Assembly: GCA_014879745.1 (NCBI GenBank)
Contig: JACSRM010000436.1
Coordinates: 11,577 to 75,576 of the forward strand
DNA: 64,000 bases
Direction: 5' to 3'
From: Burkholderiaceae bacterium
GTDB taxonomy: Bacteria > Pseudomonadota > Gammaproteobacteria > Burkholderiales > Burkholderiaceae_C
The notes beneath the pieces were generated by a model, which was given only the letters and a program-made list of their open reading frames with translations, did no database searches and was not told the origin of the DNA. Shown here in pieces: positions 5,816-64,000 of this stretch (the first letter of the stretch is position 1; each line of letters opens with the position of its first letter). The position numbers and the translations under genes were made by a program.

Positions 5816-5875
5816 AGACATCGGAGTAGACAGACCCTATCCTCAGGGAATCGATTTCTTGAGTCTGGATTCGCC

Positions 5876-6940: not shown

Positions 6941-6949
6941 AGTCAGGTA

Positions 6950-9501: not shown

Positions 9502-9512
9502 TGCGTCGCGCG

Positions 9513-11401: not shown

Positions 11402-11432
11402 TCACAGACGCGTCGTCTGAAAGGATTCCGCC

Positions 11433-12806: not shown

Positions 12807-12897
12807 TCACTGCGTCGGCGTCCGTCATCGAAAAGCCTCTCTTGAATTCCGAGTGGGTACTCTTGGGTCATGTTGAGCATGGAAGAGAGGAGTCGGG

Positions 12898-13204
12898 ATG
12901 ACAGCCAAGGTGTTTGAGGCGGCGCTGGGAATTACCGATCCGTGGTCGGTGGACGTCGGTGGACTTTGATGAAGCCGCCAAGGTGCTGACAGTGCTGATC
13001 GACTTCGCGCCGGGCAGCCGCTTTGCGGTGTCAGGCCACGAAGGCGTGCATCCGGTGGCCGGCGACACGCTGGCGGCGCTGGAGAGCGAACTGCTCGCGC
13101 GCTTGCGCGACCGGCTGCGCATCCGGCCCGTGTTCGCATGGCTCGCGCCCGGCACACTGCCGCGCGAGGCGGGCAAGACGAGGCACATCGAGATCGAAGG
13201 CTGA
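12898..13204 (+). pseudogene. ISL3-family transposase N-terminal fragment (frameshifted, truncated)
   Basis: MTAKVFEAALGITDPWSVDV then a stop. After a frame shift it continues VDFDEAAKVLTVLIDFAPGSRFAV..., the characteristic ISL3 N-terminus, but the zinc-finger cysteines are lost. No DDE domain follows. Confidence 0.55.
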
Positions 13205-13217
13205 ATAGGAGGTGGCG

Positions 13218-14000
13218 ATGGACATGCATCTGCGCGGACGCAGCGCGCTGATCACCGGGGCATCGAAGGGCATCGGCTTCTCGATCGCGAGCCTGCTCGC
13301 CGACGAGGGCTGCCACCTGCATCTCGCCGCGCGCTCGCAAGACGACCTGCAAGCCGCGCGCCAGCGCATCCTCGAGCGCGCCGACGTGCGGGTGCAGGTG
13401 CATGCGGTCGACCTGTCGCAGCGTGGCTGCGCCGCGCAACTCGCGCTGCGCTGCGGCGACGTGGACATCCTCGTCAACAACGCCGGATCGACACCGCGCG
13501 GGACGCTCGAGGAGATCGACGACGAGCGCTGGCGCGCCGCCTTCGACCTGAAAGTCTTCGGCTACATCGACATGTGCCGGCACTTCTTCGCGCGCATGAA
13601 GGCGCGGCGCAGCGGCGTCATCGTCAATATCCTCGGCAACGGCGGCGAACGGGTCGACGCCGGCTACATCGCCGGCGCCGCGTGCAACGCGTCTCTGATG
13701 GCGTTCACGCGCGCGCTCGGTGGCACGAGCGGCGACTTCGGCGTGCGCGTCGTCGGCGTCAATCCGGGCCCGGTCGCGACCGAGCGCCTCGTCGGCCTGA
13801 TGCGCAAGGAGGCGCAGACCCGACTCGGCCACGCCGAGCGCTGGGCCGAACTCGGCAGGGGCTTCCCGCTCGGGCGCGCGGCGAGCGTCGACGAGATCGC
13901 CGCCACCGTCGTGCTGCTCACCTCGGATCGGTCGTCGTACACGACGGGGACGATCGTCACGATCGACGGCGGGATGGCGAATCGCGGCTCGCTGATCTGA
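13218..14000 (+). CDS. short-chain dehydrogenase/reductase (SDR)
   Basis: ATG 13218 lies 5 nt after AGGAGG. ALITGASKGIG, NNAG and a Y..A.C.ASL-type catalytic region. About 260 aa. Confidence 0.85.
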   Translation: MDMHLRGRSALITGASKGIGFSIASLLADEGCHLHLAARSQDDLQAARQRILERADVRVQVHAVDLSQRGCAAQLALRCGDVDILVNNAGSTPRGTLEEIDDERWRAAFDLKVFGYIDMCRHFFARMKARRSGVIVNILGNGGERVDAGYIAGAACNASLMAFTRALGGTSGDFGVRVVGVNPGPVATERLVGLMRKEAQTRLGHAERWAELGRGFPLGRAASVDEIAATVVLLTSDRSSYTTGTIVTIDGGMANRGSLI

Positions 14001-47294: not shown

Positions 47295-47687
47295 GTGGGG
47301 CAGGAGACCGGGCTGATCAGTCAGAAGGAAGTGCTGCAACGGGTGCTGCAACGCGATCTCAATCAATTGGCGGCCTCGGCCCTACTGAGGCTGTCGCTGC
47401 GCAAGGTCAAGCGCCTGTGCAAACGTTTGCACGAGCAAGGCGCAGGGGGGTCGATCTCACGCCAGCAGAGGCGGCCCAGCAACCGGCGCGTGCCCGAGAC
47501 GCGCACTACATTGTCACGCGAGCACTACACCGACTCCGGCCCCGAACTCGAACGGAAATACCTCGTGCGCGAACACGGCTACGCGTGGAGCACCGAGACC
47601 CTGCGCGGCTGTATGATCCAGGCCGAACTGTCGCATCCCAAGCGGCACCGCGCGCAGCGGGTGCGCAGCCCGCGCGAGTGGGTGTGA
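47295..47687 (+). pseudogene. ISNCY (IS1202-group)-like transposase N-terminal fragment
   Basis: ...LISQKEVLQRVLQRDLNQLAASALLRLSLRKVKRLCKRLHEQGAGGSISRQQRRPSNRR...REHYTDSGPELERKYLVREHGYAWSTETLRGCMIQAEL... follows the HTH N-terminus of ISNCY transposases. No intact DDE domain follows, although weak WF...G.C...LV similarity continues in the same frame after the stop. Confidence 0.5.
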
Positions 47688-48437: not shown

Positions 48438-49040
48438 CTACCGAAGGACGACGATTTCCTCACGTGGCTTGCGCGGCCGGTTGCGGCCTTGCTGGGCCGG
48501 ATACCCGACCAGAACGAGGCCCTGCGGCTCCCAGCCGTGCGGCAACGCCAGTTTCGAGCACACCTCGTCGGGACAGAACAGCGGCGCGCACATCCAGCAT
48601 GCCCCCAGCCCTTGTGCTTCGGCAGCCAGGAGAAGGTTCTGGCCGGCCATCGCCGTGCTCTGCACCGCCATCCGATGCTCCGCCCGGGCGCGTTCGGGAT
48701 CCGGATATCGGTCCATCTCCGCCATCGTCAGGCAGACCACGATAACTAAGGGAGCCTCGACGATCCGATCTCGCGAACGCCGCACATCGGCGTCGATCTC
48801 CAGCGCATCGGCACCGTCGCGCTCGCGGTCGGTGTGCAGGCGCCGCCCCATCGCGTCGGCCAGCGATACCTTGCCGGACGCCTCGCGAACGAGGCAGAAG
48901 CGCCACGGCTGGCAGTTGTGCGCCGAAGGCGCCCTGGCTGCAGAGTCGATCAGACGCTCGATTGCATCCGGCGGCACGCTCTCGGAGCGAAAGCGTCGGA
49001 TCGTCTGCCGCTTCACGAGCAGCTCGAGCGCTTCGTGCAT
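48438..49040 (-). CDS. nitroreductase-family protein resembling the C-terminal (dehydro-F420-0 reductase) domain of FbiB
   Basis: ATG 49040 (MHEALELLVKRQTIRRFRSESV...). ...APSAHNCQPWRF..., ...YPDPERARAEHRMAV...GLGACW...LPHGWEPQGLVLVGY.... The FbiB comparison is from memory of the mycobacterial protein. Confidence 0.7.
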   Translation of the reverse strand: MHEALELLVKRQTIRRFRSESVPPDAIERLIDSAARAPSAHNCQPWRFCLVREASGKVSLADAMGRRLHTDRERDGADALEIDADVRRSRDRIVEAPLVIVVCLTMAEMDRYPDPERARAEHRMAVQSTAMAGQNLLLAAEAQGLGACWMCAPLFCPDEVCSKLALPHGWEPQGLVLVGYPAQQGRNRPRKPREEIVVLR

Positions 49041-49311
49041 GACGGCGGGAGCACCGTCAGTGAACGTCCCGCGACCGTCCAGCGAAGACCTGTCGCCCAT
49101 CGGTTGCATCTCCGGCGGCCGAGTTGCCGGGCCCAGGCCCGACCGCCCACTCTGTCGCGCACCGGGCGGCTTGACCAATGGATTGTTGGAAATCGAGCTT
49201 TCGATCGCGCTGGTCAGCACGCTGCGCGCATGCCGAATAGCACGCGCGACGCTGGCTTTGCCGGCCGCTTTCGATCCTGTGCGGGAATCCGGCAGAATGC
49301 GCCGCCTGACG

Positions 49312-51263: not shown

Positions 51264-52895
51264 ATGACCCAGACTCTCAGCGGCGGAGAAGCCATCGTCG
51301 ATGCACTCCTGCGCCACGGCGTCGAACATGTATTCGGCATTCCAGGCGTGCAGACCTACGGCCTGTTCGACGCGCTGCAGCGCGCGGGTGGGCGCATCCG
51401 CACGATCGGCGCGCGCCACGAACAGACCGCCGCCTACATGGCGTTCGGCTACGCGAAGGCGTCGGGCCGCGAAGGCGTCTATTCCGTGGTGCCGGGGCCC
51501 GGCGTGCTCAACACGGCCGCCGCGCTGTGCTCGGCCTTCGGCGCGAGCGCGCCGGTGCTGTGCGTCACGGGCCAAGTGCCCTCCGAGTACATTGGCCGGG
51601 GCTTGGGTCACCTGCACGAACTGCCTGACCAACTCGGCACGCTGCGCTCGATCACGAAGTGGGCTGCGCGCATCGCGCACCCGGCCGAGGCGCCGCGCCT
51701 GGTGGCCGAAGCGTTTACCCAGCTGCGCGTCGGCCGGCCGCAGCCGGTTGCGCTCGAGATGCCGTGGGAGGTGTTCTCGCAGCGCGCGCCAGTGCAGCCG
51801 ATCGACCCGCCTGCAACCTATCCGAAACCGGCTGTCGACGCCGAGGCCATCGCACGTGCCGCCGATTTGCTGGCGAACGCACGCAACCCGATGATCATGA
51901 CGGGCAGTGGCGCCCAGCACGCGGCTGCCGAGGTGCGCGCTCTGGCCGAGTTGCTGCAGGCGCCAGCCGTGCCGTGGCGCGGCGGGCGCGGCATCGTCGC
52001 CGAGGACTCGCACCTCGGATTCAACTGCGCATCGGGCTACCAGCACTGGGCCGACACCGACGTCGTGATCGGCATCGGTTCGCGGATGGAACTGCAGTGG
52101 TTCCGCTGGCCGGCACCGGCGCGTCCGCCCGAGATCGTGCTGATCGACATCGACCCGGCGCAGATGGCGCGCCTGCGCCCCCGCCTGGGGCTGGTCGCCG
52201 ACGCGCGCGACGCCACCACCGCGCTCATCACCGAGCTCGAGCGTCGCGGCCACCGCGCGGCATCGCGGCGCGAGGAATTCGAGGCCGCTCAGCGCCGCAC
52301 GCGCGAGGCGACGCAGGAGGTGCAGCCACACCTGGCGTACCTGCAAGCGATCCGCGCCGCGCTGCCGCGCGACGGCTACTTCGTCGAGGAGATCTGCCAG
52401 GCAGGCTTCAGCTCGTACTTCGGCTTTCCGGTCTACGAGCCGCGCCACTTCGTCACCTGCGGCTACCAGGGCACGCTGGGCTTCGGCTACCCGACGGCGC
52501 TCGGCGTCAAGGTCGCGCAGCCCGACAAGGCCGTGGTCTCGATCGCCGGCGACGGCGGCTTCATGTTCGGCGTGCAGGAGCTGGCGACCGCAGTGCAATA
52601 CGGTATCAATGTCGTCAGCGTCGTGTTCGACAACGGCGCTTTCGGTAACGTGATGCGCGACCAGGAGCAGCGATTCGACGGCCGTGTCATCGGTGCGCAA
52701 CTGCGCAACCCCGACTTCGTCCAGCTCGCGGAGAGTTTCGGCGTCGCGGCCTGGCGTGCAGGTTCGCCCGACGAACTGGGAAAGTTGCTGCGGCGCGCCC
52801 TCGATCTCGACCGGCCGGCACTGATCCACGTGCCGGTCGATCGCGTCGCGGAGGTGTCACCGTGGAAGTACCTGATGCCGGCGCCGCACCGCTGA
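51264..52895 (+). CDS. thiamine-diphosphate-dependent enzyme (acetolactate synthase large subunit-like family)
   Basis: Track ORF starts at 51252. ATG 51264 is preferred (GGAGAGA upstream). ...GGEAIVDALLRHGVEHVFGIPG..., ...IAGDGGFMF...N..(F/Y)G ThDP-binding motif. Confidence 0.85.
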   Translation: MTQTLSGGEAIVDALLRHGVEHVFGIPGVQTYGLFDALQRAGGRIRTIGARHEQTAAYMAFGYAKASGREGVYSVVPGPGVLNTAAALCSAFGASAPVLCVTGQVPSEYIGRGLGHLHELPDQLGTLRSITKWAARIAHPAEAPRLVAEAFTQLRVGRPQPVALEMPWEVFSQRAPVQPIDPPATYPKPAVDAEAIARAADLLANARNPMIMTGSGAQHAAAEVRALAELLQAPAVPWRGGRGIVAEDSHLGFNCASGYQHWADTDVVIGIGSRMELQWFRWPAPARPPEIVLIDIDPAQMARLRPRLGLVADARDATTALITELERRGHRAASRREEFEAAQRRTREATQEVQPHLAYLQAIRAALPRDGYFVEEICQAGFSSYFGFPVYEPRHFVTCGYQGTLGFGYPTALGVKVAQPDKAVVSIAGDGGFMFGVQELATAVQYGINVVSVVFDNGAFGNVMRDQEQRFDGRVIGAQLRNPDFVQLAESFGVAAWRAGSPDELGKLLRRALDLDRPALIHVPVDRVAEVSPWKYLMPAPHR

Positions 52896-53350
52896 GAGGC
52901 AAGCATGTAGCCTTGCATCCAGCCCGAACTTTTCGACAAGGTCGTGCCTTTACTTTCCGATGTCTGCAGCGGCCTGCTGCAGACCATGGACCCGCATGGC
53001 ATCGGCTGCGTCGTGCTGTCACTGTCCAGCCCGGGTCTGCAGATCGAACCGGAGACGCACAAGGCTGCCGCAGCGCGCGGCCAACGACGCGCACTGGCCA
53101 AGGCCGTGGCAACCCATCCGACGCGTTTCGGCGGATGCGCGCACTTGGCGATGCAGGACCCGGCGGCGGCGGACGAACTCGAACGTGCATCAGCCAGCTC
53201 AAGTTCCAGGGCGCGATGATCAGCGGGACGACCCACGGCGTGCGCCTCGAAGATCGGGGCTGCGACGTCTACTGGGAGCGCGTGCAGGCGCTGGACGCAC
53301 CCGTGTACCTGCGTCCGGCCAATCCTTTCACGCGACCTGATCACATCTAG
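52896..53350 (+). pseudogene. amidohydrolase-2/ACMSD-family decarboxylase (gamma-resorcylate-decarboxylase-like) N-terminal half, frameshifted and truncated
   Basis: Pieces lie in three frames: GKHVAL..., ...LLQTMDPHGIGCVVLSLSSPGLQIEPETHKAAA...ALAKAVATHPTRFGGCAHLAMQDPAAADELER..., then ...QLKFQGAMISGTTHGVRLEDRGCDVYWERVQALDAPVYLRPANPF and a stop. The order is colinear with the N-terminal ~170 aa of this family. Confidence 0.7.
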
Positions 53351-53739
53351 TCCAGGCCGTTGGGCCGCCTCTCTATGAAGCGCGGACACACGTCGAGCAC
53401 CAGTGCGATGCTCATCAGCACGATGGAGAGCGCCACGGTACCCTGCATCGCCGCGTCGCCGATCCCGCGTGGCGAGCCACAGCGGAACTTCGGCCGCCAG
53501 CCAGACCAACACCGTCACCGGTGCAATCCACGTCATTGCGCCGCGAACGGGCCGCATGATTCATCGCTCCGAAGAAATGCCATCGGCTCGATCGAGCCGG
53601 CCCAGCGACCAACGCACGCCAGAGCCCGGATAGGGCCTCGGACTCGCATCGCGCAAGGATGGGTCAGCGCGGTGGCCCCAGGCACTGCGATCCATTGGCG
53701 GCCCGTGCATGGCGGCGCTGGGCTCAATCGCAGTCAGGT

Positions 53740-55140
53740 TCAGGCGCAACGCTCGATGGCGAGCTCTTCCATGGGCGCTGCGCCGCCCTCCTCCGCCGTC
53801 GGCGGCGGCGGCAAGGCGCGCTTTTCACCGGGGGCCGGGTCACCTGGATCGCCTGGAATCGGCAGGCCGGGGCGCGGCAACGTGGCCCCAGGGCGCGCTT
53901 CGCCCGCGTAGGCTGCATCGAGGCGCTTGTCTATCTCCACTGCGGATATGCCGGCTGTGTGCAGGCGCTCGACGGCCTCATCGGCGACCACGCGGCGCCG
54001 GTATTCGATCGGCGCGTTGGGCGACGGCACTCGCTCGCGCTGGCGACGCGCCATGCGCTGAAGCATGTTCCACGCCTTGCGGTGCTCGGCGATCGGCCAG
54101 GTCTCGACCTGCCCGCTCGCCTCGAAGTCGCGCCACAACTCGACGGCTGCTGCGGTGCGCAGCACGACCAGCGTCGCACGGTCGGTGCCGATCCCGCCGC
54201 ATGAGATGTCGGCGAGTTCGGCCGAGAAGTCTGTGCAGTGGGCACAGGCCGGCCGCTGGTACTCCGCCATCGCCTCGGCAAGGGGAACGCTGGCGACACT
54301 GCCGTCGCGGGTGTGGATCAGCACCTCGCCCTTGACGTTGAACTTCTCGACATCGGCCAGCGCGATGCCCATGCGCTCCTGCACCCGCTCGGTCATCAGT
54401 TCCGGGCGGAACACCTCTGTGCAGAACAGACCGACGCTGATAGCGACACGCTCGGACAGGCCGCGCAGAAAGCGGCGCTGGTGCCCGACCATCGTGTGAT
54501 GCTTTCCTTCACGCAGCAGGAAGCCGGGATCAACGCTGCCCATCTTGCGCACCGGCGTCACTTGGCAGGGTACGCCAACGAAGGCTACGCGCTGCAATCC
54601 GTCGGTCTTCGCCTGCGAAAGCGCGAGCGGGTTCGGGCAATAGGTGTACCAACTGCCCGCGCTGGCCTCGATCTCGGCGACGGTCGTCGCGAGCCGTGGT
54701 GACGGAAAGCATGGCGGATCGTCCTCACCGACCGCGGCCAGCGCGGCACCGTCGATGCGTCCAGTCTCGCGCGCCCAGGCGAGCAGCGCGGTGACGATGC
54801 CACCGTCCTGCGCGCGCGCCACCGCGCGCCGCGAGCGGGCGACGAAGACGTGCCGGTAGACGCCGAACACGCCCTCCCAGCGACGCTCGTCGGCGAACGC
54901 CGCGTCGCGCAACTGCAGCTCGTAGGGCTCGATGCGAGGGCACACCGCCGCGCAAACGTCGCAGCCCTTTGTCGCGCTGACGAAGCAGTAGTCGAAGGCA
55001 CGCACCTGCGGGTCGGCCACGCGCGGGCGGCCGTCGACGTATTCGATGACCTTGTACGGGCAGACGGTGACACAGGCCGCGCACTCGGCACAGCGGCCGA
55101 CGGCGACGACGTCGTTCATCATCATGGCGAAGGTCGGCAT
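53740..55140 (-). CDS. coenzyme F420 hydrogenase/dehydrogenase beta-subunit (FrhB/FdhB)-family protein with N-terminal 4Fe-4S ferredoxin-type motif and Pro-rich C-terminal tail
   Basis: ATG 55140 (MPTFAMMMNDVVAVGRCAECAACVTVCPY...). ...DGGIVTALLAWARETGRIDGA..., ...CAHCTDFSAELADISCGGIG... are typical of FrhB_FdhB N/C domains. The last ~100 aa (…PGLPIPGDPGDPAPGEKRALPPPP…) were not recognised. Confidence 0.75.
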   Translation of the reverse strand: MPTFAMMMNDVVAVGRCAECAACVTVCPYKVIEYVDGRPRVADPQVRAFDYCFVSATKGCDVCAAVCPRIEPYELQLRDAAFADERRWEGVFGVYRHVFVARSRRAVARAQDGGIVTALLAWARETGRIDGAALAAVGEDDPPCFPSPRLATTVAEIEASAGSWYTYCPNPLALSQAKTDGLQRVAFVGVPCQVTPVRKMGSVDPGFLLREGKHHTMVGHQRRFLRGLSERVAISVGLFCTEVFRPELMTERVQERMGIALADVEKFNVKGEVLIHTRDGSVASVPLAEAMAEYQRPACAHCTDFSAELADISCGGIGTDRATLVVLRTAAAVELWRDFEASGQVETWPIAEHRKAWNMLQRMARRQRERVPSPNAPIEYRRRVVADEAVERLHTAGISAVEIDKRLDAAYAGEARPGATLPRPGLPIPGDPGDPAPGEKRALPPPPTAEEGGAAPMEELAIERCA

Positions 55141-55196
55141 CTCGGGCACGGCAGGCTCCAAAGGGTGGAAGTGGCGCTGCGGGGCGCCGGATCGGG

Positions 55197-57608
55197 TCAG
55201 GCAGCGGCGCCATGTAGCGCGGGGCTGGCATGCATGAGACGCATCTCGGCGGCGTCCCCATAGAGTGTGGTGCGCTGACGCGGGGTGCGGCCCAGGTCGC
55301 GCACGACGCGTTCGATGCGCACGACGTCCATCGCTTGGCCGTGAAGCGCACCGGCGGCGCGCGAGATGCTCTCCTCCATCAGCGTGCCGCCGAAGTCGTT
55401 CGCGCCGGCCTGCAGCACGTGGCGCATCACTTCCTCGCCGAGCTTGACCCAGGAGCCCTGAATATTCGGCACGAGCGGATGCAGCGCGAGGCGGGCGACA
55501 GCGTGCACGAGCACCGCCTCGCGCAAGGTCGCGCCAGCACGCGCGGCGCCGGAGGCAAACAGCGGCGTCGCATCCGCGACGAATGGCAGAGGAACGAACT
55601 CGGTGAAGCCGCCACTTCGCACTTGCAGGCGGCGCAGGTGCAGCAGGTGGCGCGCCCAGTGCTCGGGACGGTCGACGTGACCGAACATCATCGTCGCCGT
55701 GCTGCGCAGACCGAGGTCGTGCGCGGTGCCGACCACCTCCAGCCACTCGTCGGTGCTCAGCTTGTCCGGGCAGATGACGCGGCGCACCTCTTCGTCGAGG
55801 ATTTCGGCCGCGGTGCCAGGCAGGCTGCCCAGGCCGGCATCGCGCAGCGCGGCGAGGAACTCGCGCACGCCGATGCCCGAAGCCGCCGCCCCGTGGTGGA
55901 TCTCGAGCGGCGAGAACGCGTGGACGTGGATGGCGGGCGCCGCGCGCTTGACGGCGCGCACGATGTCGAGGTAGTGCCCGGCGTCGTAGCGGCGCCGTAT
56001 CCCGCCCTGGATGCAGACCTCGGTCGCACCGCTCGCCCAGGCATCAGCACTGCGCCGCGCGATCTCGTCGGCGTCCAGCTCGTACGGCGCGTCGCGTGCC
56101 GGTGCCTCGGTCCGGCCGCGCGAGAACGCACAGAACCCGCAGCGGTAGCCGCACAGATTGGTGTAGGTGATGTTGCGCGTGACGACGTAGCCGACCACTT
56201 CTGCGCAGACCTGCCGGCGCAACGCGTCGGCCGCTTCGCACACACGCCAGAAGTCGGCGCCGCGCGCGCGCAGCAGCGCAGCGATCTGATCTTCGCCAAG
56301 TTCGCGTCCCTGCACGGCGTCGTCGAGCGCACGCTCGAGCGCGAGTCGCATTGGCGTGCGCGGGCGAGCCAGCGGGTGTGCCGGCTCGCGCGGCGGCACG
56401 CCGGGTCGGCCCGGTGCCCAGTCGCCGACGCGCGCAAGCCCGTCGGCGTCGCTGGCGCGCAGCACACGCGTGTGCAACGCCGGATCGATCCAGCCCCCGG
56501 GGTCGGTGATCCAGCGCGGATGCGCGGCAAGCCGCTCGACGAGTACCTTGCCGGCCGCCGCGCTCGCCTGTGCCAACTGTTCGACCTGCGGCCACGGCGC
56601 CTCCGGATTCACATGGTCGGCAGTGACAGGCGATACGCCACCCCAGTCGTCGATCCCGGCATCGATGAGCTGCTGCAGCGGACCGACCGCCAGGTTGGGC
56701 GGTGCCTGAATGTGCGTGTTCGGCCCGAAGACGATGCGCGCGACCGCGATCGTCCACAGGTGCTCGCCGAACGACAGTGACGGTGCATGCGCCATGCGCG
56801 TGCCCGGCTTGGCACGGAAGTTCTGCACGATCACTTCCTGCAGGTGCCCGTAGCGATCGTCGAGGTCGCGCAGTTCGAGCAGCGAGGCGATGCGTTCGAG
56901 CCGCGTTTCGCCGATACCGACCAGGATGCCGGACGTGAACGGCACTGAAGCCGCACCGGCCGCGGCGATCGTCGCCAAGCGCGACGCCGGTCGTTTGTCG
57001 GGGCAGCCGTGGTGCGGCCCGCCGTACGCGGCAAGTCGCTCCGCGCTGCTTTCGAGCATCAGTCCCATCGACAGCGCGAGCGGGCGCAACGCGTCGATCT
57101 GCGCACGGCTCATCACGCCCGGGTTGAGGTGCGGCAGCAGCGCCGTGTGCTCGACCACGAGCCGGGCCATCGCCGCGACGTAGTCGAGTGTGGAGCGATA
57201 GCCGAGCCGCCGCAGCGTATCCCGCGCCGCGCGGTACCGTGTCTCCGGTCGGTCGCCGAGCGTGAACAGCGCTTCCTTGCACCCGGCACGCTGACCCGCC
57301 TCGGCGATGGCCAGAACCTCGTCCGGCGACAGGTAGGCCGGTTGGCCGTCCTGCGGCGGATGCGCATAGGCACAGTAGCCGCAGCGGTCGCGACACAGGT
57401 GGGAGAGCGGGATGAAAACCTTGCGCGACCAGGTGATCGCGTCGCCGAAGGCGCGATCGCGGATGAATCCCGCTACCGTCATCAGCGCGGCAATATCGTC
57501 GCACTCGGCAAGTGCCAGCGCATCGAAGGCGTTCGGGCGCTCGCCGACGAGTGCACGCTGCAGGACGTGGGCAATCCGGTTCGATTGGAAATCGTTCGAC
57601 ATGGTCAT
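55197..57608 (-). CDS. fbiC: bifunctional FO synthase (7,8-didemethyl-8-hydroxy-5-deazariboflavin synthase, CofG+CofH fusion)
   Basis: ATG 57608 overlaps the cofC stop (ATGA). Two radical-SAM motifs, CRDRCGYC and CGYRCGFC. About 803 aa, colinear with FbiC. Confidence 0.9.
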   Translation of the reverse strand: MTMSNDFQSNRIAHVLQRALVGERPNAFDALALAECDDIAALMTVAGFIRDRAFGDAITWSRKVFIPLSHLCRDRCGYCAYAHPPQDGQPAYLSPDEVLAIAEAGQRAGCKEALFTLGDRPETRYRAARDTLRRLGYRSTLDYVAAMARLVVEHTALLPHLNPGVMSRAQIDALRPLALSMGLMLESSAERLAAYGGPHHGCPDKRPASRLATIAAAGAASVPFTSGILVGIGETRLERIASLLELRDLDDRYGHLQEVIVQNFRAKPGTRMAHAPSLSFGEHLWTIAVARIVFGPNTHIQAPPNLAVGPLQQLIDAGIDDWGGVSPVTADHVNPEAPWPQVEQLAQASAAAGKVLVERLAAHPRWITDPGGWIDPALHTRVLRASDADGLARVGDWAPGRPGVPPREPAHPLARPRTPMRLALERALDDAVQGRELGEDQIAALLRARGADFWRVCEAADALRRQVCAEVVGYVVTRNITYTNLCGYRCGFCAFSRGRTEAPARDAPYELDADEIARRSADAWASGATEVCIQGGIRRRYDAGHYLDIVRAVKRAAPAIHVHAFSPLEIHHGAAASGIGVREFLAALRDAGLGSLPGTAAEILDEEVRRVICPDKLSTDEWLEVVGTAHDLGLRSTATMMFGHVDRPEHWARHLLHLRRLQVRSGGFTEFVPLPFVADATPLFASGAARAGATLREAVLVHAVARLALHPLVPNIQGSWVKLGEEVMRHVLQAGANDFGGTLMEESISRAAGALHGQAMDVVRIERVVRDLGRTPRQRTTLYGDAAEMRLMHASPALHGAAA

Positions 57609-58312
57609 CGGTTCAGGACGCGCGGCGGTGGCAGCGGTAGCGGTAGCGGCGACGCCGGCGTGACCGGGTCGACGAGGTTGAGGGCTTCGATCAGTCGCCA
57701 GGTCCGGGTCGGCGACGGCACCGCGGCGAAGCGGCGCAGGTCGTCCGGCGTGTCGAGGTCCAGCCCGATGCCGGGCAGAGGCCGCACGCGCGGCACGAGG
57801 CCGGTGATGCAGGCCGCAAGCAGGTTGCGCGCGCAACTGTCGCGACCGAAGAACAGAGCGACGCGGTCGGGCGGCGTCAGCAGCACGCCGTTGCTGCCGC
57901 GTCCGTCGAGCGACGGCACGATCGTCAACCCGGCAGCCTCACCATGCGCGGCGAGCACCGCGTCCACCTCGCACGCGCTGATACCGGGGACGTCGCCGTG
58001 CACCACGAACATGCCGCCGCGGCCCGAGCCGGCCAGCCAGCGCGCTGTATGAGCCACCGCCGGGGTCAGCGCACGGTCGTCGGGGTCCAGCCGAACCTCG
58101 GCGCCGTGACGCCGCGCGATGCATGCGGCTGCCGGGTCGCGCGTCACCACGATCACACCGGCCAGACGCTGCGAGCGGCCGAGCTCGTCGAGCACATCGG
58201 CCAGCATGGCCTGTGCGAGGTGGGATCGCACTTGGGCGCTGGCGGCGCCAGCCATGCGCTGCTTGGCGAACCGAAACGGCTTCACCGGAACGACGGCCCA
58301 GCAGTCGATCAT
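57605..58312 (-). CDS. cofC: 2-phospho-L-lactate (or PEP/3-PG) guanylyltransferase
   Basis: 235 aa. ...CWAVVPVKPFRFAKQRM..., ...VVTRD..., ...GDVPGI... are typical of CofC/FbiD. Start overlaps the cofD stop (ATGA). Confidence 0.85.
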   Translation of the reverse strand: MIDCWAVVPVKPFRFAKQRMAGAASAQVRSHLAQAMLADVLDELGRSQRLAGVIVVTRDPAAACIARRHGAEVRLDPDDRALTPAVAHTARWLAGSGRGGMFVVHGDVPGISACEVDAVLAAHGEAAGLTIVPSLDGRGSNGVLLTPPDRVALFFGRDSCARNLLAACITGLVPRVRPLPGIGLDLDTPDDLRRFAAVPSPTRTWRLIEALNLVDPVTPASPLPLPLPPPRVLNR

Positions 58313-59310
58313 GGCCTTGCGCCATGGCGCCCTGCCGCTGTGCGCGTCGCGAGCCGCTCGGCAACCGGTAGCGTCGCCAATTGCGCCGCCGTCGCGAGGA
58401 CCGTGCGGGCCAGCGCCTCGCGTTGCTCGAGATCGTCCATCAGGATGCGGGCGATCACCGGCTCGATTCCGACCTCCGCTACTGCCTCCGCATCCGCCGC
58501 GTCGACCAGCAAGGCGTCGATCAATCCGGCATAGCGGCGCGCAACGCCGGCCGCGCTCGCGGGCAGGCCCAAGTCCCGCATCAGCTTGACGGTCGGTCCT
58601 TTCACTGCCTGGCCGGCGATCACCGGCGAGACGGCCACCACCGGTGCCGGGCAGGCGGCAAGGGCATCGCGCACCCCGGGCAGCGCGAGCATCGGCTCGA
58701 CACTGAGCAGTGGGTTCGACGGGCAGACGATGACCGCGCGCAGCGACGCACCCGCCAGCCCCTCACGCAGCGCCTCAGCCGGCCGTGCAATGTCCGCGCC
58801 AGCATAGGCCACCGCGCGCACCGCCGGGGCGCATCGACGGCGCACGAAGTAGTCCTGGAAGTCGAGCCAGCCATCGTCGGTACGCAGGCGGGTCGCCACC
58901 GCATCGTCGCTCATCGGCACGATGCGTGCGGCTATGCCCAGTCGCGATACGACCGCGTGCGTGACTTGGCCGAGCGTGTGCCCGGCCGCGAGCCGATGAG
59001 TTCGCTCGACGTGCATCGCGAGATCGGCGTCGCCGATGCGAAACCACGTCTCGCCTCCGAGCGACTCCAGAGCATCCATGAAGTGCCAGCTCTCGTCGCG
59101 CCGGCCCCAGCCGCGCTGCGGGTCGGCCAGGCCCGCGAGCGTGTAGACCAGCGTGTCCACATCCGGAGACACGGCGAGGCCGAGATGTCGGAAGTCGTCG
59201 CCGGTGTTGGCGACGACCGTCAGCGTCCCGGGCGCGAGCACGCGCGATAGCCCCAGCGCGAGCTTGGCTCCGCCGACTCCGCCCGAAAGGGCGAGCACCG
59301 TGCCGCTCAT
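58309..59310 (-). CDS. cofD: 2-phospho-L-lactate transferase (FO phosphotransferase)
   Basis: ATG 59310 overlaps the cofE stop (ATGA). ...VLALSGGVGGAKLALGL..., ...VANTGDDF..., ...CPSNPLLS.... Confidence 0.9.
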   Translation of the reverse strand: MSGTVLALSGGVGGAKLALGLSRVLAPGTLTVVANTGDDFRHLGLAVSPDVDTLVYTLAGLADPQRGWGRRDESWHFMDALESLGGETWFRIGDADLAMHVERTHRLAAGHTLGQVTHAVVSRLGIAARIVPMSDDAVATRLRTDDGWLDFQDYFVRRRCAPAVRAVAYAGADIARPAEALREGLAGASLRAVIVCPSNPLLSVEPMLALPGVRDALAACPAPVVAVSPVIAGQAVKGPTVKLMRDLGLPASAAGVARRYAGLIDALLVDAADAEAVAEVGIEPVIARILMDDLEQREALARTVLATAAQLATLPVAERLATRTAAGRHGARP

Positions 59311-60080
59311 CGAAACAGATCCTCGCTCGGTGGCCGCAGTAGTGAACAAGCCGGCAGCGGCGGTCCCTGCAAAGCAAGCCCGCGAACAACGACCGCCGGC
59401 ACCGCCTCGTCGGCCTGGCCCATCAGCAGCGAGGCAGCAGCGGCGATCTCGTCGGCGAGGGCAACCTCGGTGATGCGCAATGTGCGGCCGAACAGATCCG
59501 GCCGACCCCGCAGGTCGTGCAACGCGGGCAGTCCGCTGCAGCCGAGTGCGACGCCGACACTGCCTCGCCGCCAGGGGCGGCCGAAGCTGTCGTTGACGAT
59601 CACGGCAATGGTGCCACCGCAACGCGCTTGCAGCGCGTCGCGCAGCCGCTCGGCACTGCGGTCGGGGTCCGCGGGCAGCAGCAGGGCCAGATCGTCATCG
59701 CCGCCGACGTTCGACTGATCGACACCGGCATTGGCCATCACGAAGCCGAGCCTGTGCTCGACGATGAGCACGTCCTTGCGGCTGCGCACGACGCGCACCG
59801 ACTCGCCGAGGATGATCTCGACCAAGCGCGCGTCCTTGCCGGTCTCGCGGGCGAGTTCGCGCGCGCGCGCCGATGGCGTTATGCGCCGCAGGTCGACCGT
59901 GCGGCCCTCAGCCTTCGAGACGATCTTCTGCGCGAACACGACCACGTCGCCCGCGCGCAGCGAACCGCCCGAGCGATCGAGCGAAGCGACGAGGAGCGAG
60001 ACTAGATCGTCGCCCGGCTGCACCAGCGGCAGCCCGGCGACGCCGATCAGCGACAGCGCCGGTGCGGCGCGTACGTTCAT
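59307..60080 (-). CDS. cofE: coenzyme F420-0:L-glutamate ligase (stand-alone, no fused nitroreductase domain)
   Basis: ATG 60080 (MNVRAAPALSLIGVAGLPLVQPGDDL...). ...VVFAQKIVSKAEGR..., ...GFVMANAGVDQSNV..., ...NDSFGRPWRRG.... About 257 aa. Confidence 0.9.
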   Translation of the reverse strand: MNVRAAPALSLIGVAGLPLVQPGDDLVSLLVASLDRSGGSLRAGDVVVFAQKIVSKAEGRTVDLRRITPSARARELARETGKDARLVEIILGESVRVVRSRKDVLIVEHRLGFVMANAGVDQSNVGGDDDLALLLPADPDRSAERLRDALQARCGGTIAVIVNDSFGRPWRRGSVGVALGCSGLPALHDLRGRPDLFGRTLRITEVALADEIAAAASLLMGQADEAVPAVVVRGLALQGPPLPACSLLRPPSEDLFR

Positions 60081-60169
60081 GGCGAGCCTCGCCGTTCCAA
60101 TGCGTTCATCACGCAGATAGCGTAGGACGAACGCGCGCGCCGCCCAAGCGGAACTCTTGGATGGCTCGT

Positions 60170-60184
60170 ATCGATCGCGACGAT
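60170..60184. promoter_or_regulatory. ATC-N9-GAT (nod-box-core/LTTR-like) palindrome ATCGATCGCGACGAT in the cofE / LysR divergent region
   Basis: Read directly. About 90 nt upstream of the cofE start and about 145 nt upstream of the LysR start. Confidence 0.3.
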
Positions 60185-60328
60185 GCACGCGCGGGATGAG
60201 GACGCGACCTTGACTTCGATCAAACGAACCATCCACGGCGCGCGAGACCATCCATCCGGAACATGCCGCTGCCAGGATCGCACCGTTCGACGCATGCGGC
60301 GGCGACGGGCGTGTCAGCAGGACGATCG

Positions 60329-61249
60329 ATGCATTTCAAGGGACTCGACCTCAACCTCCTGGTTGCGCTGGACCTTCTGCTCGCCGAGCGCAGCATCACC
60401 CGCGCGAGCGAACGTTTGCACCTGAGTCAGTCGGCCATGAGCAGCGCGCTCGGCCGCCTTCGCTCGTACTTCGACGACGAACTGCTGGTACAGACCGGGC
60501 GCAACATGGTGCCGACTGCGCTGGCCGAGGCCCTTGCTGCACCGGTGCGCGAGGTCTTGTTGAAGATCGACAGTACGGTGCGCACGCGGCCGCAGTTCGA
60601 AGCGGCAACGTCGACGCGCCACTTCAAGTTGCTGATGTCCGACTACGTGTCGACCGTGCTGCTGGCCAATCTGCTGCCGCGCCTCGAACGAGAGGCGCCG
60701 GGCGTCAGCCTCGATCTGCTGCCGTACGCCGATTCGCACTGGGAAATGCTCGAGCGCGGCAGCGCCGACTTCCTCTTCATACCGTCGCAATACCTGCGCG
60801 GCGAGCATCCCTGGGAAGTGCTGTTCGAAGACGAGTTCGTCGGTGTAGTCTGGTCCGGCAACGCTTTGGTCGGGGCGCAACTCACGCTCGAGCAGTACAT
60901 GGCACTCGGCCACGTCGCTGTTCGTTTCGGCAACCTGCGCGCACCGACAACGGTCGACTCGTTCTTTGATAATCTCGGCCACCATCGCCGGATTGACGTG
61001 GTCGCTGCCGACTTCAACTCGACGACGCGTATGGTAATCGGGACTCACCGCATCGCCACCGTGCAAAGGCGCCTGGCGTGCTACTACGCCACCTACCTTC
61101 CCTTGCGCGTGCTGGAGCTGCCCATGAACATGCCGCGCTTGTGCGAGATCATCGCCTGGCACGGCTTCCGCACGAACGATCCAGGGAGCGTCTGGTTGCG
61201 CCGGATGATGGCCGACGCGATGCGCGACGCTGCACCGGCATCGCCCTGA
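60329..61249 (+). CDS. LysR-family transcriptional regulator, NodD-like (paralogue 3 of 3), divergent from the F420 operon
   Basis: ATG 60329. MHFKGLDLNLLVALDLLLAERSITRASERLHLSQSAMSSALGRLRSYFDDELLV.... Confidence 0.9.
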   Translation: MHFKGLDLNLLVALDLLLAERSITRASERLHLSQSAMSSALGRLRSYFDDELLVQTGRNMVPTALAEALAAPVREVLLKIDSTVRTRPQFEAATSTRHFKLLMSDYVSTVLLANLLPRLEREAPGVSLDLLPYADSHWEMLERGSADFLFIPSQYLRGEHPWEVLFEDEFVGVVWSGNALVGAQLTLEQYMALGHVAVRFGNLRAPTTVDSFFDNLGHHRRIDVVAADFNSTTRMVIGTHRIATVQRRLACYYATYLPLRVLELPMNMPRLCEIIAWHGFRTNDPGSVWLRRMMADAMRDAAPASP

Positions 61250-61330
61250 GGCGCTCGACGGCGCCGATCCTTCAGCGCCCGCCGAGCTCCCGGCGGCACA
61301 GGTGATGGCGGTGTACTGGAAGCGTCGCGC

Positions 61331-62622
61331 TCAGGCGCCGTGCTTGCGCGCCGCGTGGTACATCGCACGCACGCTCTCGATCGGCGCCTCGTCGGGGATG
61401 CCAAAGGCGGTGTCGAGAATCAGCCAGCCGCCCTTGGCGAATACCTCGGCGACCAACCGGGCGACCGCCGCCTCGACGTCGGCCGGCGTACCCATCGACA
61501 TCACCGACGGGTGCATGCCGCCGCGCAGTGCGACGCCGCCGCACCTCGCGCGCGCGAACCATGTCGGTCCGCTCGAACCAGTACAGGCACTTGCCTGCGG
61601 GGACGTCGCAGATCGTTTCCAGCGGCTTCGTGCAATCGGCCTCCCGCAGCGGCATCGGAATCAAGCCCAGCTCGATGATGCCGAGCATCAGTTCGCGAAA
61701 CGACGGCCACCATAAGGTCTCGAACTGCTTGGGCGACATCAACGCGTCGGGCACCCGATGCACCGGGATGAACACCGGCGGCCTGCTCATGAGAGGCTTT
61801 TGCACCTAGAGCCGACGCAGCGTCAGCACCATCATCTTGTCGAGCGCCTGCAGCACCTTGGCTGGCCGAAGTTACAGATCCTTCATCATCGCGGTGGCGC
61901 CGCGGAAGTAATCGCCGAAGTTGTCGTACGGCCCGCAGCACACCCCACCGATACCTGAAGGAAAAATCCATGCCGACGATCCGCCCCATCATCTCGCCGG
62001 CTATCCCCAGGTGCCTGGCGGTCTTGCGGCCGGTATCGATCAGCCGCATCATCGCCAACTGCAATCGAGGCTCGACGAAGACCACCGTGTTGTAGACAAC
62101 ATCGAAGTAGCTCGCTCCGGCGAACGAACCCAGCGCCTCGCTGCCCTCGAAGGCGGTCGCCACGCGCGCAGGTACTTGCTGTAGTGGAAGCCGGGCGGGT
62201 CGAACAGGAAATCGTCGTACTCGTCGACGAGCATGTACTCGCGATCGAGGAACTGGAACGGCCGGTCGTGGGGCAACGCCCCCCCGGCCATTCGATCTGC
62301 CGATAGCCGATGGCGTCCAACGGCGCGCCGAAGCCCATCGTCAGCAGGCTCGGGCAACACAGGTCGGGTTCGAGTTCACGAGTGATGTCGATCAACGTCG
62401 GCACGAGGCGCTCGGGGTCGTACATGGCGTCGCGGAAACTGAAGCCGCCGTACTTGGCCGGTCAGAACATCACGGACAGCGCCGTCGGCATGCGATCCGG
62501 CTGCCGCAATTCGATGCAGTCCGTGACGCGCCGCCGACGCGCTTCGTGCGCGGCGGCACGACGGGCGGCATCGGTCCCTGGTCCACGGGCGGTGCGACAT
62601 CCATCGTCCGCATCGCCTTCAT
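61331..62622 (-). pseudogene. decayed paralogue of the URO-D-type methyltransferase at 91..1368
   Basis: Colinear pieces in several frames: ...VTDCIELRQPDRMP..., MYDPERLVPTLIDITRELEPD...IGYRQIEWPGG, ...FQFLDREYMLVDEYDDFLFDPPGF..., ...YDNFGDYFRGATAMMKDL then stop (TAA, 61872..61874), a second stop (TAG, 61806..61808), ...PVFIPVHRVPDALMSPKQFETLWWPSFRELML..., ...GGWLILDTAFGIPDEAPIESV.... Confidence 0.85.
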
Positions 62623-63254
62623 GCCGGCACTCCCATCCAGCCGTTGCAAAGGTTGACCGCCGCGACTGCGTTGACGCCGAAGGCGTCGGCACCGGTCCAG
62701 GAACGCACGGTTTCGTCGACTTGATCGCCACTCACCACGACCTTGACGCGCGAGTGCAGGCCGGCGGCCTCGAGTGTGGCGACCGTTTGCTTCATCGAAT
62801 CGAAAGCGAGCGTGAGAAAACCCGACAGCGCCACGATGTCGGGTTCCGCGGCGCACACCTCGTCGCCAAAGCGCGAAACCGGCACGTCGACGCCGATGTC
62901 CTTCACCTCGTCGTCGTTGATGTCGAGCATGAACGGCACGATGTTCTGTCGTGCAGGTCGCCGGCTACGGCGCCGATCAGGGCGCTGCACCGGTGCGCCC
63001 GCGTCGGTCAGCAGCGGCTTGGCGATCGCGCCGACCGTCTCGAGCATCTCGCCGGCCAATACCAGTTCGGGTAGGAAGTAATCACCCGCCTCGAAGCTTT
63101 TGCCCACCTCGTCCATCGCCATGTGGCAAAGCTCGAGCACGCGCAGCGGATCCTTGCTTTCTTCGAGCAGCATGCGCCGCGCCAACGCCAGCGCATCGTC
63201 CTCGTTCATGTCGGCGAGCCACTCGACCAGCTGGCGTTCGTTCGGTCCTTCGAT
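62619..63254 (-). pseudogene. decayed paralogue of the corrinoid protein at 1601..2263 (cobalamin His-ligand motif destroyed)
   Basis: Track ORF 62619..63209 is colinear with 1601..2263. The segment that should read ...LIGAVAGDLHDIGKNIV... is traversed out of frame: GGCGACCTGCACGAC at 62948..62962 encodes GDLHD in another frame, and about 7 nt of the IGK codons are missing. The N-terminal codon aligned to Met is ATC. Confidence 0.75.
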
Positions 63255-63267
63255 CCACCCTCCTCGA

Positions 63268-64000
63268 TCAGCGAAATGCCGGAATGACGTGGCGGCCGAA
63301 CAGGCGGATCGTGTCCTCGCTGTACGCCGGGTCCATGCCGCCGAAATGCTGGCACAGCACCGGATGCGTGACGTTCATCGCCTGGATACGCCGCAACGGC
63401 TCGATTACGTCCTCGGGTGTGCCGACGAGGAACGGCGAACCGAGGAAGTGCATGCGCTTCAAGCTGTCGACGTCGCGTGGGTCGGGGAGCGGGTCAACGC
63501 CGAAATATCCACCCGGCTTGTCGCGAAACCAGGCGAAGTCAGGGTGACGATCGAACTCCGACTTGTAGTATTGGAGCCAGCGGATCATCGGTTCGCCGGC
63601 GCGCTGCCATGCTTCCTCGCGCGTCGACGCGAGCACGACATAGACCAGCATCGCGCGATTGAAATCCTTCGGGTCGCGGCCGTACGCGCGCAGCTTCTGC
63701 TCGTACAGATCAAAGCCGGTGCCCGAGCCGGCGAGGTGGTAACCCAGGCGCGCCGCGCGGTCGAGCGCTGCGGGCGCGTTGCCGGCCAGCCAGATTGGCG
63801 GCTTGGTTTGCACTGGTCGCGGGTTCATCGTGAAGTTGCGCACGGCATAGTGGTTGCCGCTGAACGAGAAGTCGCGCCGCGTCCAGACGCCGGAGATGAT
63901 CGCCAGGCTCTCCTCCATGCGCGCGGCGCGCTCCTTGCGCGAGACGCCGAAGTTGTCGAACTCCTCCTGGAAGTTGCCGATGCCCAGGCCGAGGTCCAGG
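63268..64000 (-). CDS. luciferase-like monooxygenase (LLM) class flavin/F420-dependent oxidoreductase, 5' end outside the window
   Basis: The frame is open to the right edge (...LDLGLGIGNFQEEFDNFGVSRKERAARMEESLAIISGVW...PIWLAG...). Cofactor preference (FMN versus F420) cannot be read from this piece. Confidence 0.8.
   Translation of the reverse strand, partial: LDLGLGIGNFQEEFDNFGVSRKERAARMEESLAIISGVWTRRDFSFSGNHYAVRNFTMNPRPVQTKPPIWLAGNAPAALDRAARLGYHLAGSGTGFDLYEQKLRAYGRDPKDFNRAMLVYVVLASTREEAWQRAGEPMIRWLQYYKSEFDRHPDFAWFRDKPGGYFGVDPLPDPRDVDSLKRMHFLGSPFLVGTPEDVIEPLRRIQAMNVTHPVLCQHFGGMDPAYSEDTIRLFGRHVIPAFR

Follow-up and report, generated by a model that had tools for sequence, protein, structure and literature searches.

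An FrhB-like iron-sulfur flavoprotein encoded after the F420 biosynthesis genes of a Burkholderiaceae bacterium: a candidate F420:ferredoxin-type oxidoreductase

The genome of a Burkholderiaceae bacterium from activated sludge (assembly GCA_014879745.1) raises the question of why a cluster of coenzyme F420 biosynthesis genes continues into a gene for an FrhB-like iron-sulfur flavoprotein, and what this protein, hereafter FrhBL, does. The locus belongs to a stretch of 64,000 nucleotides of contig JACSRM010000436.1 (positions 11,577 to 75,576 of the forward strand), here called the window, with a GC content of 0.65–0.72 across most of its length; gene coordinates were read off the minus strand of the window at 53.5–60.5 kb. 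Analysis of the five minus-strand genes, cofE-cofD-cofC-fbiC-FrhBL, suggests that they constitute one F420 module, for which co-transcription is inferred, and that FrhBL is probably an F420/F420H2:iron-sulfur (ferredoxin-type) oxidoreductase, with F420 use and the electron-transfer partner deduced from sequence and from analogy to relatives. A probability of about 0.6 is assigned to this explanation as a whole.

The capacity for F420 synthesis is represented by the complete core set of proteins. CofC, CofD, CofE and CofG/CofH (4/4) score above the NCBIfam equivalog cut-offs and also satisfy the respective Pfam models. CofE reached 288.9 bits with TIGR01916 (cut-off 180.65) and E = 4.5e-80 with the Pfam model F420_ligase, CofD reached 291.7 bits with TIGR01819 (cut-off 257.45), CofC 120 bits with TIGR03552 (cut-off 105), and FbiC (CofGH) 1087 bits with NF006687 (cut-off 1018), with additional matches to TIGR03550 and TIGR03551. 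The junctions cofE/cofD, cofD/cofC and cofC/fbiC, namely, TTCGATGAGC, GGCCATGATC and ACCGATGACC, are all ATGA stop/start overlaps; junction sequences and equivalog scores thus agree with the gene order and the three overlaps described in an earlier sequence-only reading of the window. The same four core genes are present in proteobacterial, actinobacterial and Thermomicrobia F420 operons, consisting of fbiC, cofC/fbiD, cofD/fbiA and cofE/fbiB with or without a stand-alone nitroreductase, and the CofE of the window is single-domain, as in the F420 operons of Gram-negative bacteria.

The best match of CofC in the PDB is the enzyme of Mycetohabitans using 3-phosphoglycerate (3-PG), 7P97. In the alignment to 7P97 and 6BWG, Gly156 of the window CofC is located at the position of Ser162 of the Mycetohabitans CofC, the residue diagnostic for 3-PG use (PMC8764529). 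Since this residue is Gly and not Ser, the predicted cofactor should be classical F420, not 3PG-F420.

The FrhBL protein contains the Pfam domains FrhB_FdhB_N (65.3 bits, cut-off 22; residues 101–177, numbered here and below from the ATG at 55140) and FrhB_FdhB_C (112.4 bits, cut-off 23.3; residues 186–354). Together with the flavin adenine dinucleotide (FAD) motif, the cluster-binding cysteines and the fold, these domains identify FrhBL, by sequence and structural model, as a member of the FrhB/FdhB superfamily (‘F420-dependent redox-coupling’, ‘FDRC’; PF04422 and PF04432). The core motifs AQDGGIVT, GVPCQ, GLFCTE and CxxCxDFSAELADIxCGGxG align with methanogen FrhB (HMMER; chains 6qgr and 3zfs), and AQDGGIVT lines up with the FAD-site motif AQDGGI(A/V)T of FrhB. 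The ligands of the core [4Fe-4S] cluster, PC192, C240, C299 and C302, are invariant in the alignment of 22 FrhBL homologues (A1), on which all statements about invariance are based, and their spacing reproduces the cluster-1 motif of Fsr, for which the non-canonical pattern PCX40CX54CX2C was described (PMC10229431).

The N-terminal part corresponds to a ferredoxin domain for two further [4Fe-4S] clusters, with the motifs C17xxC20xxC23xxxC27P and C52x7C60xxC63xxxC67P. All eight cysteines of this domain are invariant, and the total of invariant cluster-ligand cysteines in FrhBL is 12 of 12. The sequence-only reading had noted an N-terminal Cys cluster; it is present, as two motifs and not one. 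The matches to the Fer4 dicluster models Fer4_7 and Fer4_9 are weak, but the domain aligns with the ferredoxin domains of FwdI, ACDS-zeta and Fsr, and the alignments to 8rja_E and 8riu_B begin at residue ~7.

The closest structural relatives of FrhBL were sought by a profile search of the PDB and by Foldseek with an AlphaFold2 model, and both gave the same result. The top Foldseek matches were 8rja_E (FwdI) and 8riu_B (ACDS-zeta), covering the ferredoxin domain and the core at 29% identity and a template modelling score (TM-score) on target of 0.71–0.74; they are followed by FrhB (6QGR, 3ZFS, 4CI0) and the N-terminal half of Fsr (7NP8, 7NPA). Foldseek probability was 1.00 for FwdI, ACDS-zeta, FrhB and Fsr, with TM-scores on target of 0.71–0.81, and profile E-values were 1e-49 for FrhB, FwdI and ACDS-zeta and 2e-41 for Fsr. 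FwdI and ACDS-zeta of ‘Ca. Ethanoperedens’ were experimentally shown to reduce F420 (PMC11493965).

These values bear on the alternative that FrhBL does not depend on F420 at all, being a ferredoxin-dependent FAD/iron-sulfur reductase of some other substrate, similar to HCAR or BciB, with F420 genes nearby owing to shared regulation or chance. HCAR does belong to the superfamily and was also matched by Foldseek (5dqr, E = 1e-9), and FrhBL is below every equivalog cut-off. However, the profile E-values for HCAR (1.3e-9) and for FdhB of the Hdr complex were only 1e-9 to 1e-10, so that similarity to F420-using members, such as FrhB at 1e-49, is ~40 orders of magnitude stronger, and FrhBL does not group with the HCAR/BciB-type chlorophyll reductases. 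Pigment genes were found neither in the window nor in the FrhBL loci, no other obvious substrate pathway is encoded in the neighbourhoods, and F420 genes are associated with FrhBL independently in several architectures and phyla. An F420-independent reductase is accordingly regarded as very improbable.

Comparison with characterized proteins showed both common and distinctive features. In FwdI and ACDS-zeta of ‘Ca. Ethanoperedens thermophilum’ (8RJA chain E, 8RIU chain B), the 2x[4Fe-4S] ferredoxin domain precedes the FAD/[4Fe-4S] F420-reductase domain in the same order as in residues ~7–380 of FrhBL; however, these proteins are archaeal, originate from an anaerobe and are stoichiometric subunits of formylmethanofuran dehydrogenase or CO dehydrogenase, whereas FrhBL is bacterial and has no such partner gene nearby. 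FrhB, the beta subunit of [NiFe] hydrogenase (4OMF, 3ZFS, 6QGR), shares the core fold, the FAD motif and the [4Fe-4S] ligands (TM-score on target ~0.8), but has no fused ferredoxin domain, the respective clusters being supplied by FrhG, and no tail, both of which FrhBL possesses. The N-terminal F420H2-oxidase half of Fsr has the ferredoxin domain, the FrhB core and the core-cluster cysteine pattern in common with FrhBL, but forms one polypeptide with a siroheme sulfite reductase domain, which FrhBL lacks. Thus, the ferredoxin-domain fusion of FrhBL is like that of FwdI, ACDS-zeta and Fsr, while a fused or co-encoded catalytic partner, such as Fwd, CODH (CO dehydrogenase) or sulfite reductase, is absent. 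In function, FpoF/FqoF comes closest to the proposed role, as this FrhB-type iron-sulfur flavoprotein connects F420 with ferredoxin or with a respiratory complex; FpoF is archaeal, and no fpo or nuo genes adjoin FrhBL. Soluble FpoF acts as a ferredoxin:F420 oxidoreductase in Methanosarcina, for which a 2021 review of F420 cites Welte and Deppenmeier 2011.

The C-terminal extension of FrhBL has no Pfam match and contains no fused catalytic domain. In the model, two helices at residues ~382–411 are followed by a segment with a predicted local distance difference test score (pLDDT) of 65–82 over residues 431–458. The nearly invariant motif GxPIPGDPGxPxPGEKRxLPPPPxxxxGGAxP is encoded at 53773–53868, and the invariant or near-invariant columns of the tail are A410, Y411, I428, P429, P432, K440, P444, G452, G453 and P456. 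A Pro-rich tail over the last ~100 residues was proposed previously; proline is indeed enriched there (16% versus 5% elsewhere in the protein), but the Pro-rich part comprises only the last ~50 residues and is a conserved hallmark of the clade rather than anonymous low-complexity sequence. ACDS-zeta likewise has a C-terminal extension, which mediates dimerization (PMC11493965); that of FrhBL is longer, unrelated and Pro-rich, and may serve for oligomerization, by analogy, or else for docking of a partner.

The tail motif was identified in 67–75 FrhBL genes and elsewhere, among 161 loci and the window, only in one duplicated gene fragment, for which reason a targeting peptide shared with other proteins was rejected. 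The fragment, an isolated second copy of the tail (…GDPGPAPEGEKRILPPPPLAVQGGAAPET*; L034:13139-13230, plus strand), is located 1.7 kb downstream of the intact gene, past a 509-aa gene on the opposite strand, and looks as if an insertion had left behind a duplicated 3' part of the gene.

The genomic context of FrhBL was analysed in the best 80 species-level loci, taken with as much as 10 kb in either direction, using as queries the biosynthesis proteins of the window and representatives of recurrent neighbour clusters annotated with NCBIfam. At strict identity thresholds, an F420-linked gene was found within 10 kb in 51 of the 80 loci and in 36 of the 47 whose flanks reach 5 kb or more in both directions. 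Genes of F420 biosynthesis are present within 10 kb in 18 loci, in several arrangements. The arrangement of the window, cofE-cofD-cofC-fbiC-FrhBL (type A), was found in loci L069 and L071, and a short variant, cofC-fbiC-FrhBL, in Spongiibacter (L051); the gene order of the window is repeated in L069, L071 and L081 with spacers of 60–70 nt. Type B, cofG-cofH-FrhBL-nitroreductase-cofD-cofC-cofE, is represented by 11 Nitrospinota/Tectomicrobia-type loci, in one of which, L163, the FrhBL and nitroreductase genes overlap by 4 nt. FrhBL and the biosynthesis genes are divergent in Sterolibacterium (L002), and fbiC lies 2–9 kb from FrhBL in L015, L037 and L065.

Genes of F420-using enzymes are also frequent neighbours. 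A gene for the F420-dependent luciferase-like (LLM) oxidoreductase TIGR03617 (390.8 bits, cut-off 278) is present in 28/80 loci, the gene for a PPOX-class F420-dependent oxidoreductase (FDOR; TIGR03666) precedes FrhBL by ~155 nt on the same strand in 8/80, and another LLM gene follows it at 100–200 nt in 4/80. The gene of the tail-less cousin P0127 is likewise located near LLM and cofE genes. Each of the distinct architectures, found in different phyla, represents a separate association with F420 genes. Accordingly, the position of an FrhB-like gene beside F420 genes, noted in the earlier reading, stands, although it is not unique to the organism of the window and is met in several arrangements across phyla.

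In the reverse survey, the window FbiC served to select its 80 closest metagenomic loci (45–63% identity). The genes cofD and cofE were detected in 25–26 of these fbiC loci, while FrhBL was present in a single one, L081, the closest relative there. The earlier statement that bacterial F420 operons do not normally include an FrhB-type gene is therefore borne out by the neighbourhoods of fbiC, and the gene is what the window operon carries in addition to the known bacterial set. Its presence in only 1/80 fbiC loci suggests an accessory F420-linked enzyme not needed for core biosynthesis.

The same counts bear on the proposal that FrhBL feeds electrons to F420 synthesis itself, either to the flavin mononucleotide of an FbiB-C-like nitroreductase reducing dehydro-F420-0 to F420-0 or to the radical-SAM clusters of CofG/CofH. 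Its position between cofH and the nitroreductase gene in the 11 type B loci, with the 4-nt overlap in L163, would fit such a function, as would the location of FrhBL directly after fbiC in the window, with an FbiB-C-like nitroreductase 4.5 kb away. However, the reverse survey indicates that F420 synthesis generally manages without FrhBL; 62 of the 80 FrhBL loci contain no biosynthesis gene within 10 kb, most of them having genes of F420-using enzymes instead; and L069, L071 and L081 have no nitroreductase nearby. In Braga et al. 2020, stand-alone nitroreductases reportedly finish F420 synthesis in heterologous hosts without any FrhB homologue. A helper function in biosynthesis is consequently considered improbable. 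FrhBL is also unlikely to be the dehydro-F420-0 reductase itself, as a separate FbiB-C-like nitroreductase is encoded alongside it in 11 loci and in the window.

The electron-transfer partner was sought by clustering all open reading frames (ORFs) within 7 kb of FrhBL in the 80 loci. No conserved partner gene was found in these loci, the recurring genes being F420-linked ones and those of lineage-specific synteny (sox genes, a CoA-transferase and a high-potential iron-sulfur protein, HiPIP). Genes of hydrogenases, formate dehydrogenases, Fpo/Nuo or sulfite reductases do not adjoin FrhBL in any of the 80 loci (25/64 neighbour families shown), and no small ferredoxin ORF (45–200 aa, CxxCxxCxxxC) is located within 4 kb of it in these loci. 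More specifically, frhA, frhG or any hydrogenase family, as well as complex-I-like genes (fpo/fqo/nuo), were found neither among the ~48 window proteins scanned nor among the recurrent neighbour families shown (25 of the 64 matched).

These negative results weigh against the proposed oxidoreductase, as do the following observations. An F420-linked gene is absent within 10 kb in 11 of the 47 well-flanked loci, and the locus counts are not phylogenetically independent. FrhBL scores 169.2 bits with the FrhB model TIGR03289 (cut-off 331.5) and 189.5 bits with NF006807 (cut-off 269), which distinguishes it from FrhB proper, and only a partial match of 117 bits was obtained with the FpoF/FqoF models NF040616 and NF006808 (cut-offs 475 and 444); being below the FrhB and FpoF cut-offs, FrhBL is, judging from sequence, not an orthologue of any characterized enzyme, and its superfamily also holds members not using F420, such as HCAR. 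The AlphaFold2 model is of moderate confidence only (mean pLDDT 66, predicted TM-score 0.72), and pLDDT is below 50 over the ferredoxin domain. Finally, a search of sequencing runs matched DNA metagenomes (activated sludge and others; 12–14% of sampled words); RNA runs were found for neither the window nor the Spongiibacter locus.

The absence of a partner gene also speaks against the alternative in which FrhBL is a dedicated input or output subunit of a complex encoded elsewhere, attached by its ferredoxin domain and tail to a larger iron-sulfur enzyme. Such an enzyme could be a respiratory complex, as for FpoF/FqoF, or a dehydrogenase, as for FwdI and ACDS-zeta, with electrons passing to or from F420. 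The characterized relatives of the same architecture, FwdI, ACDS-zeta and Fsr, are all bound modules (PMC11493965, PMC10229431), and the tail is strictly conserved and clade-specific, as would be expected of a docking element. However, no candidate partner gene is conserved beside FrhBL in the 80 loci of several phyla, and in many of them FrhBL seems to be a monocistronic gene or has only small F420-dependent enzymes as companions. A docked subunit thus appears unlikely, and a soluble F420:ferredoxin-type oxidoreductase is the simplest reading, because a conserved partner gene is lacking nearby and FrhBL is often paired only with such small enzymes.

With respect to this oxidoreductase, the cofactor signatures, the F420-reductase relatives and the 36 of 47 well-flanked loci agree with the proposal of the sequence-only reading that FrhBL is a candidate for linking the F420/F420H2 pool with ferredoxin or a different carrier; its supporting argument, the lack of Fgd and Fno genes, is weak, and an LLM gene at the window edge had not been taken into account.

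In eight gammaproteobacterial loci, a HiPIP gene is located ~140 nt downstream of FrhBL (for example, L165:8634-8972, the same genomic region as L011). The N-terminus of this HiPIP resembles a twin-arginine translocation (Tat)-type export signal, and, if exported, the protein is unlikely to be the direct partner of FrhBL. In Spongiibacter pelagi (L051:1089-4592, plus strand), an IOR-like 2-oxoacid:ferredoxin oxidoreductase of 1167 aa and an amino-acid dehydrogenase are encoded just upstream of cofC-fbiC-FrhBL. The IOR-like enzyme was rejected as a general electron source, since its gene, 2 kb upstream, was found in Spongiibacter only and in 0/160 other loci.

Under the preferred explanation, CofC, CofD, CofE and FbiC would make classical F420, possibly via dehydro-F420-0 reduced by the nearby FbiB-C-like nitroreductase. 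Hydride would be exchanged between F420(H2) and the FAD bound to FrhBL, and FAD would pass single electrons to the core [4Fe-4S] cluster. The ferredoxin domain with its two clusters would then relay them to a one-electron partner outside the protein, which could be a carrier of the ferredoxin type or an iron-sulfur enzyme docked to FrhBL. In this way FrhBL would tie the F420/F420H2 pool of the organism to general iron-sulfur electron carriers, in a manner likened to soluble FpoF of Methanosarcina and to FwdI and ACDS-zeta of ‘Ca. Ethanoperedens’. Reductases of the FDOR type usually consume F420H2. Because FrhBL often adjoins FDOR or LLM genes, F420 reduction, that is, supply of F420H2, is the more likely physiological direction, as suggested by the gene neighbourhood.

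In a wider interpretation, bacterial F420 biology would have its missing physiological electron supplier in the FrhBL clade, a ferredoxin-linked F420 reductase independent of Fno and Fgd and spread together with F420 genes by horizontal transfer. Its Pro-rich peptide would dock onto the FbiB-C-like nitroreductase, giving a self-priming dehydro-F420-0 reductase system, or onto the radical-SAM FO synthase, so that FrhBL would participate directly in both making and charging F420. This interpretation is speculative and rather improbable.

Homologues of FrhBL form a tight clade. A search of 5.8 billion proteins gave >700 matches, the best 120 of which are 54–72% identical to FrhBL over 80–99% of its length, tail included; identity within the clade is at least 52%, again with the tail. 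In a profile search of 1.84 billion representatives clustered at 50% identity, the whole clade collapses to one full-length representative (788 bits), and the next full-length proteins (376–413 aa, ~365–380 bits) end near residue 380 without a tail. The C-terminal tail is specific to the FrhBL clade.

Relatives of FrhBL were found in at least 248 species genomes among GTDB contigs with one genome per species, a collection that does not include the organism of the window. The carriers, from Gamma- and Betaproteobacteria, Nitrospinota and Tectomicrobia, are mostly metagenome-assembled genomes of Gammaproteobacteria, with Burkholderiales and Sterolibacterium among the others; one carrier, Spongiibacter pelagi KMU-158, is cultured. 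Carriage on plasmids was rejected, as PLSDB contains only distant homologues (25–29%) of haloarchaeal and alphaproteobacterial origin. In databases the proteins bear the generic name ‘coenzyme F420 hydrogenase/dehydrogenase beta subunit’. No description of the bacterial FrhBL clade was found in full-text searches of the literature, although Ney et al. 2017 (ISME J) might mention one, and a 2021 review of F420 gives the distribution of the FrhB-type (‘FDRC’) family as Euryarchaeota only. The FrhB family as such is well known; FrhBL stands out as a stand-alone FDRC module from bacteria that combines a ferredoxin domain with a tail confined to its clade and recurs in F420 gene clusters.

The coordinates of the module and of the other genes relevant to it are given in Table 1.

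Table 1. Features of the F420 locus and of related genes, in window coordinates.
Feature	Coordinates	Strand	Remarks
cofE, F420-0:gamma-glutamyl ligase	59307..60080	-	257 aa, single domain, without fused FbiB C-terminal domain
cofD, 2-phospho-L-lactate (or enolpyruvyl) transferase	58309..59310	-	ATGA overlaps at both ends
cofC, guanylyltransferase	57605..58312	-	TIGR03552; Gly156 at diagnostic position
fbiC, fused CofG-CofH radical-SAM FO synthase	55197..57608	-	803 aa; NF006687
Spacer between fbiC and FrhBL	55150..55196	-	47 nt to GTG or 56 nt to ATG; GGAG at 55156-55159
FrhBL gene (FrhB-like iron-sulfur flavoprotein)	53740..55149	-	469 aa from GTG 55149, 466 aa from ATG 55140
FrhBL, N-terminal 2x[4Fe-4S] ferredoxin domain	54937..55092	-	residues ~1-75, two Cys motifs
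FrhBL, core with FAD and one [4Fe-4S]	54088..54849	-	residues ~95-370; motif AQDGGIVTALLAWA; PC192-x47-C240-x58-C299-x2-C302
FrhBL, C-terminal extension	53743..54030	-	residues ~371-466 (~95 residues); two predicted helices, then Pro-rich motif
LLM-class (luciferase-like) oxidoreductase gene	63268..64000	-	3' part, cut by window end; Pfam Bac_luciferase
LysR-family regulator	60263..61249	+	divergent, 182 nt from cofE start; Pfam HTH_1, LysR_substrate
Corrinoid/B12-binding protein	62619..63209	-	in the block separating the LLM gene from cofE
Stand-alone nitroreductase-superfamily gene	48438..49220	-	candidate dehydro-F420-0 reductase (FbiB C-terminal type); NCBIfam

The start of FrhBL was placed at the GTG 55149 in preference to the ATG 55140, because a GGAG precedes it by 6 nt; the length of 466 aa and the gap of 56 nt given previously hold for the ATG. 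No terminator-like or sigma-70-like site was found in 53300–60500. The fbiC–FrhBL spacer shows no special fold (z = -0.38), and its sequence is not conserved in the corresponding spacers of L069, L071, L081 and L051; with neither a promoter or terminator consensus, nor an unusual fold, nor conservation between relatives, a regulatory element in the spacer was rejected.

The LLM gene at the end of the window is probably F420-dependent, judging from its best NCBIfam match, the F420-dependent LLM model TIGR03619, which it scores below the cut-off. Its orthologues, 82% (L069:3912-5165) and 78% (L071:1-804) identical, are located directly upstream of cofE, with a gap of 7 nt in L069. This position suggests that the ancestral unit was probably LLM-cofE-cofD-cofC-fbiC-FrhBL, with biosynthesis genes between those of two redox enzymes; compared with known bacterial F420 operons, the operon of the closest relatives is thus further extended at its 5' end. 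In the window, the LLM gene and cofE are separated by a block of ~3.2 kb (60081–63267; GC 0.65 versus 0.70) containing the LysR gene, unassigned ORFs and the gene for the corrinoid-binding protein, and the block looks like an insertion or rearrangement, because LLM and cofE are adjacent in relatives. In L069, the orthologous operon is likewise accompanied by flanking LysR genes, which show 51% and 58% identity.

The stand-alone nitroreductase has its best NCBIfam matches in NF009810 (C-terminal part) and in TIGR03553 FbiB_CTERM (154 bits, cut-off 249.55). The nitroreductase of the type B operons scores 148.9 bits with TIGR03553, about as much as that of the window, and both are below the cut-off. 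The window enzyme is 36–41% identical to the one encoded after FrhBL in Nitrospinota/Tectomicrobia operons, and no nitroreductase gene was found near the operon in L069, L071 and L081. The ‘complete’ F420 pathway of the window may therefore include this gene as a fifth, unlinked member. The reported lack of Fgd and Fno genes in the window holds for the ~48 proteins scanned, but the LLM fragment and the FbiB-C-like nitroreductase had been overlooked; in any case the argument is weak, because the window represents 64 kb of a multi-Mb genome.

Other parts of the window contain genes of different character. Between the gene of a thiamine-pyrophosphate enzyme and FrhBL, a region of ~850 nt (52896–53739) has no assignable gene and shows weak GC3 periodicity at ~53100–53450; an ORF of 356 aa (52487–53557, minus strand) matches no family, and its coding signal is poor. 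Remnants of mobile elements are represented by an ISNCY-family transposase fragment (47295–47687, plus strand) and a Mutator-family transposase (7800–8957, plus strand). Positions 1–14000 have a GC content of 0.59–0.64, below that of the rest, and may be an acquired region; genes encoding an autoinducer-binding LuxR, a second LuxR-family (GerE-type) regulator, a Rieske/VanA-type oxygenase, a PhyH dioxygenase, a URO-D-like protein and a fatty-acid desaturase were annotated there.

The reason why Proteobacteria and other newly recognized producers make F420 was named an open question in the 2021 review. The present analysis defines a compact bacterial FDRC clade, occurring in mostly aerobic lineages and repeatedly tied into F420 gene clusters, and extends the range of the family beyond the Euryarchaeota to which it was confined in that review. 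If FrhBL is an F420:ferredoxin-type oxidoreductase, it would provide a route between F420 and iron-sulfur/ferredoxin carriers independent of Fno or Fgd, and would be a potentially useful F420-recycling enzyme for biocatalysis. The presence of FrhBL in the cultured Spongiibacter pelagi KMU-158 makes its role directly testable.

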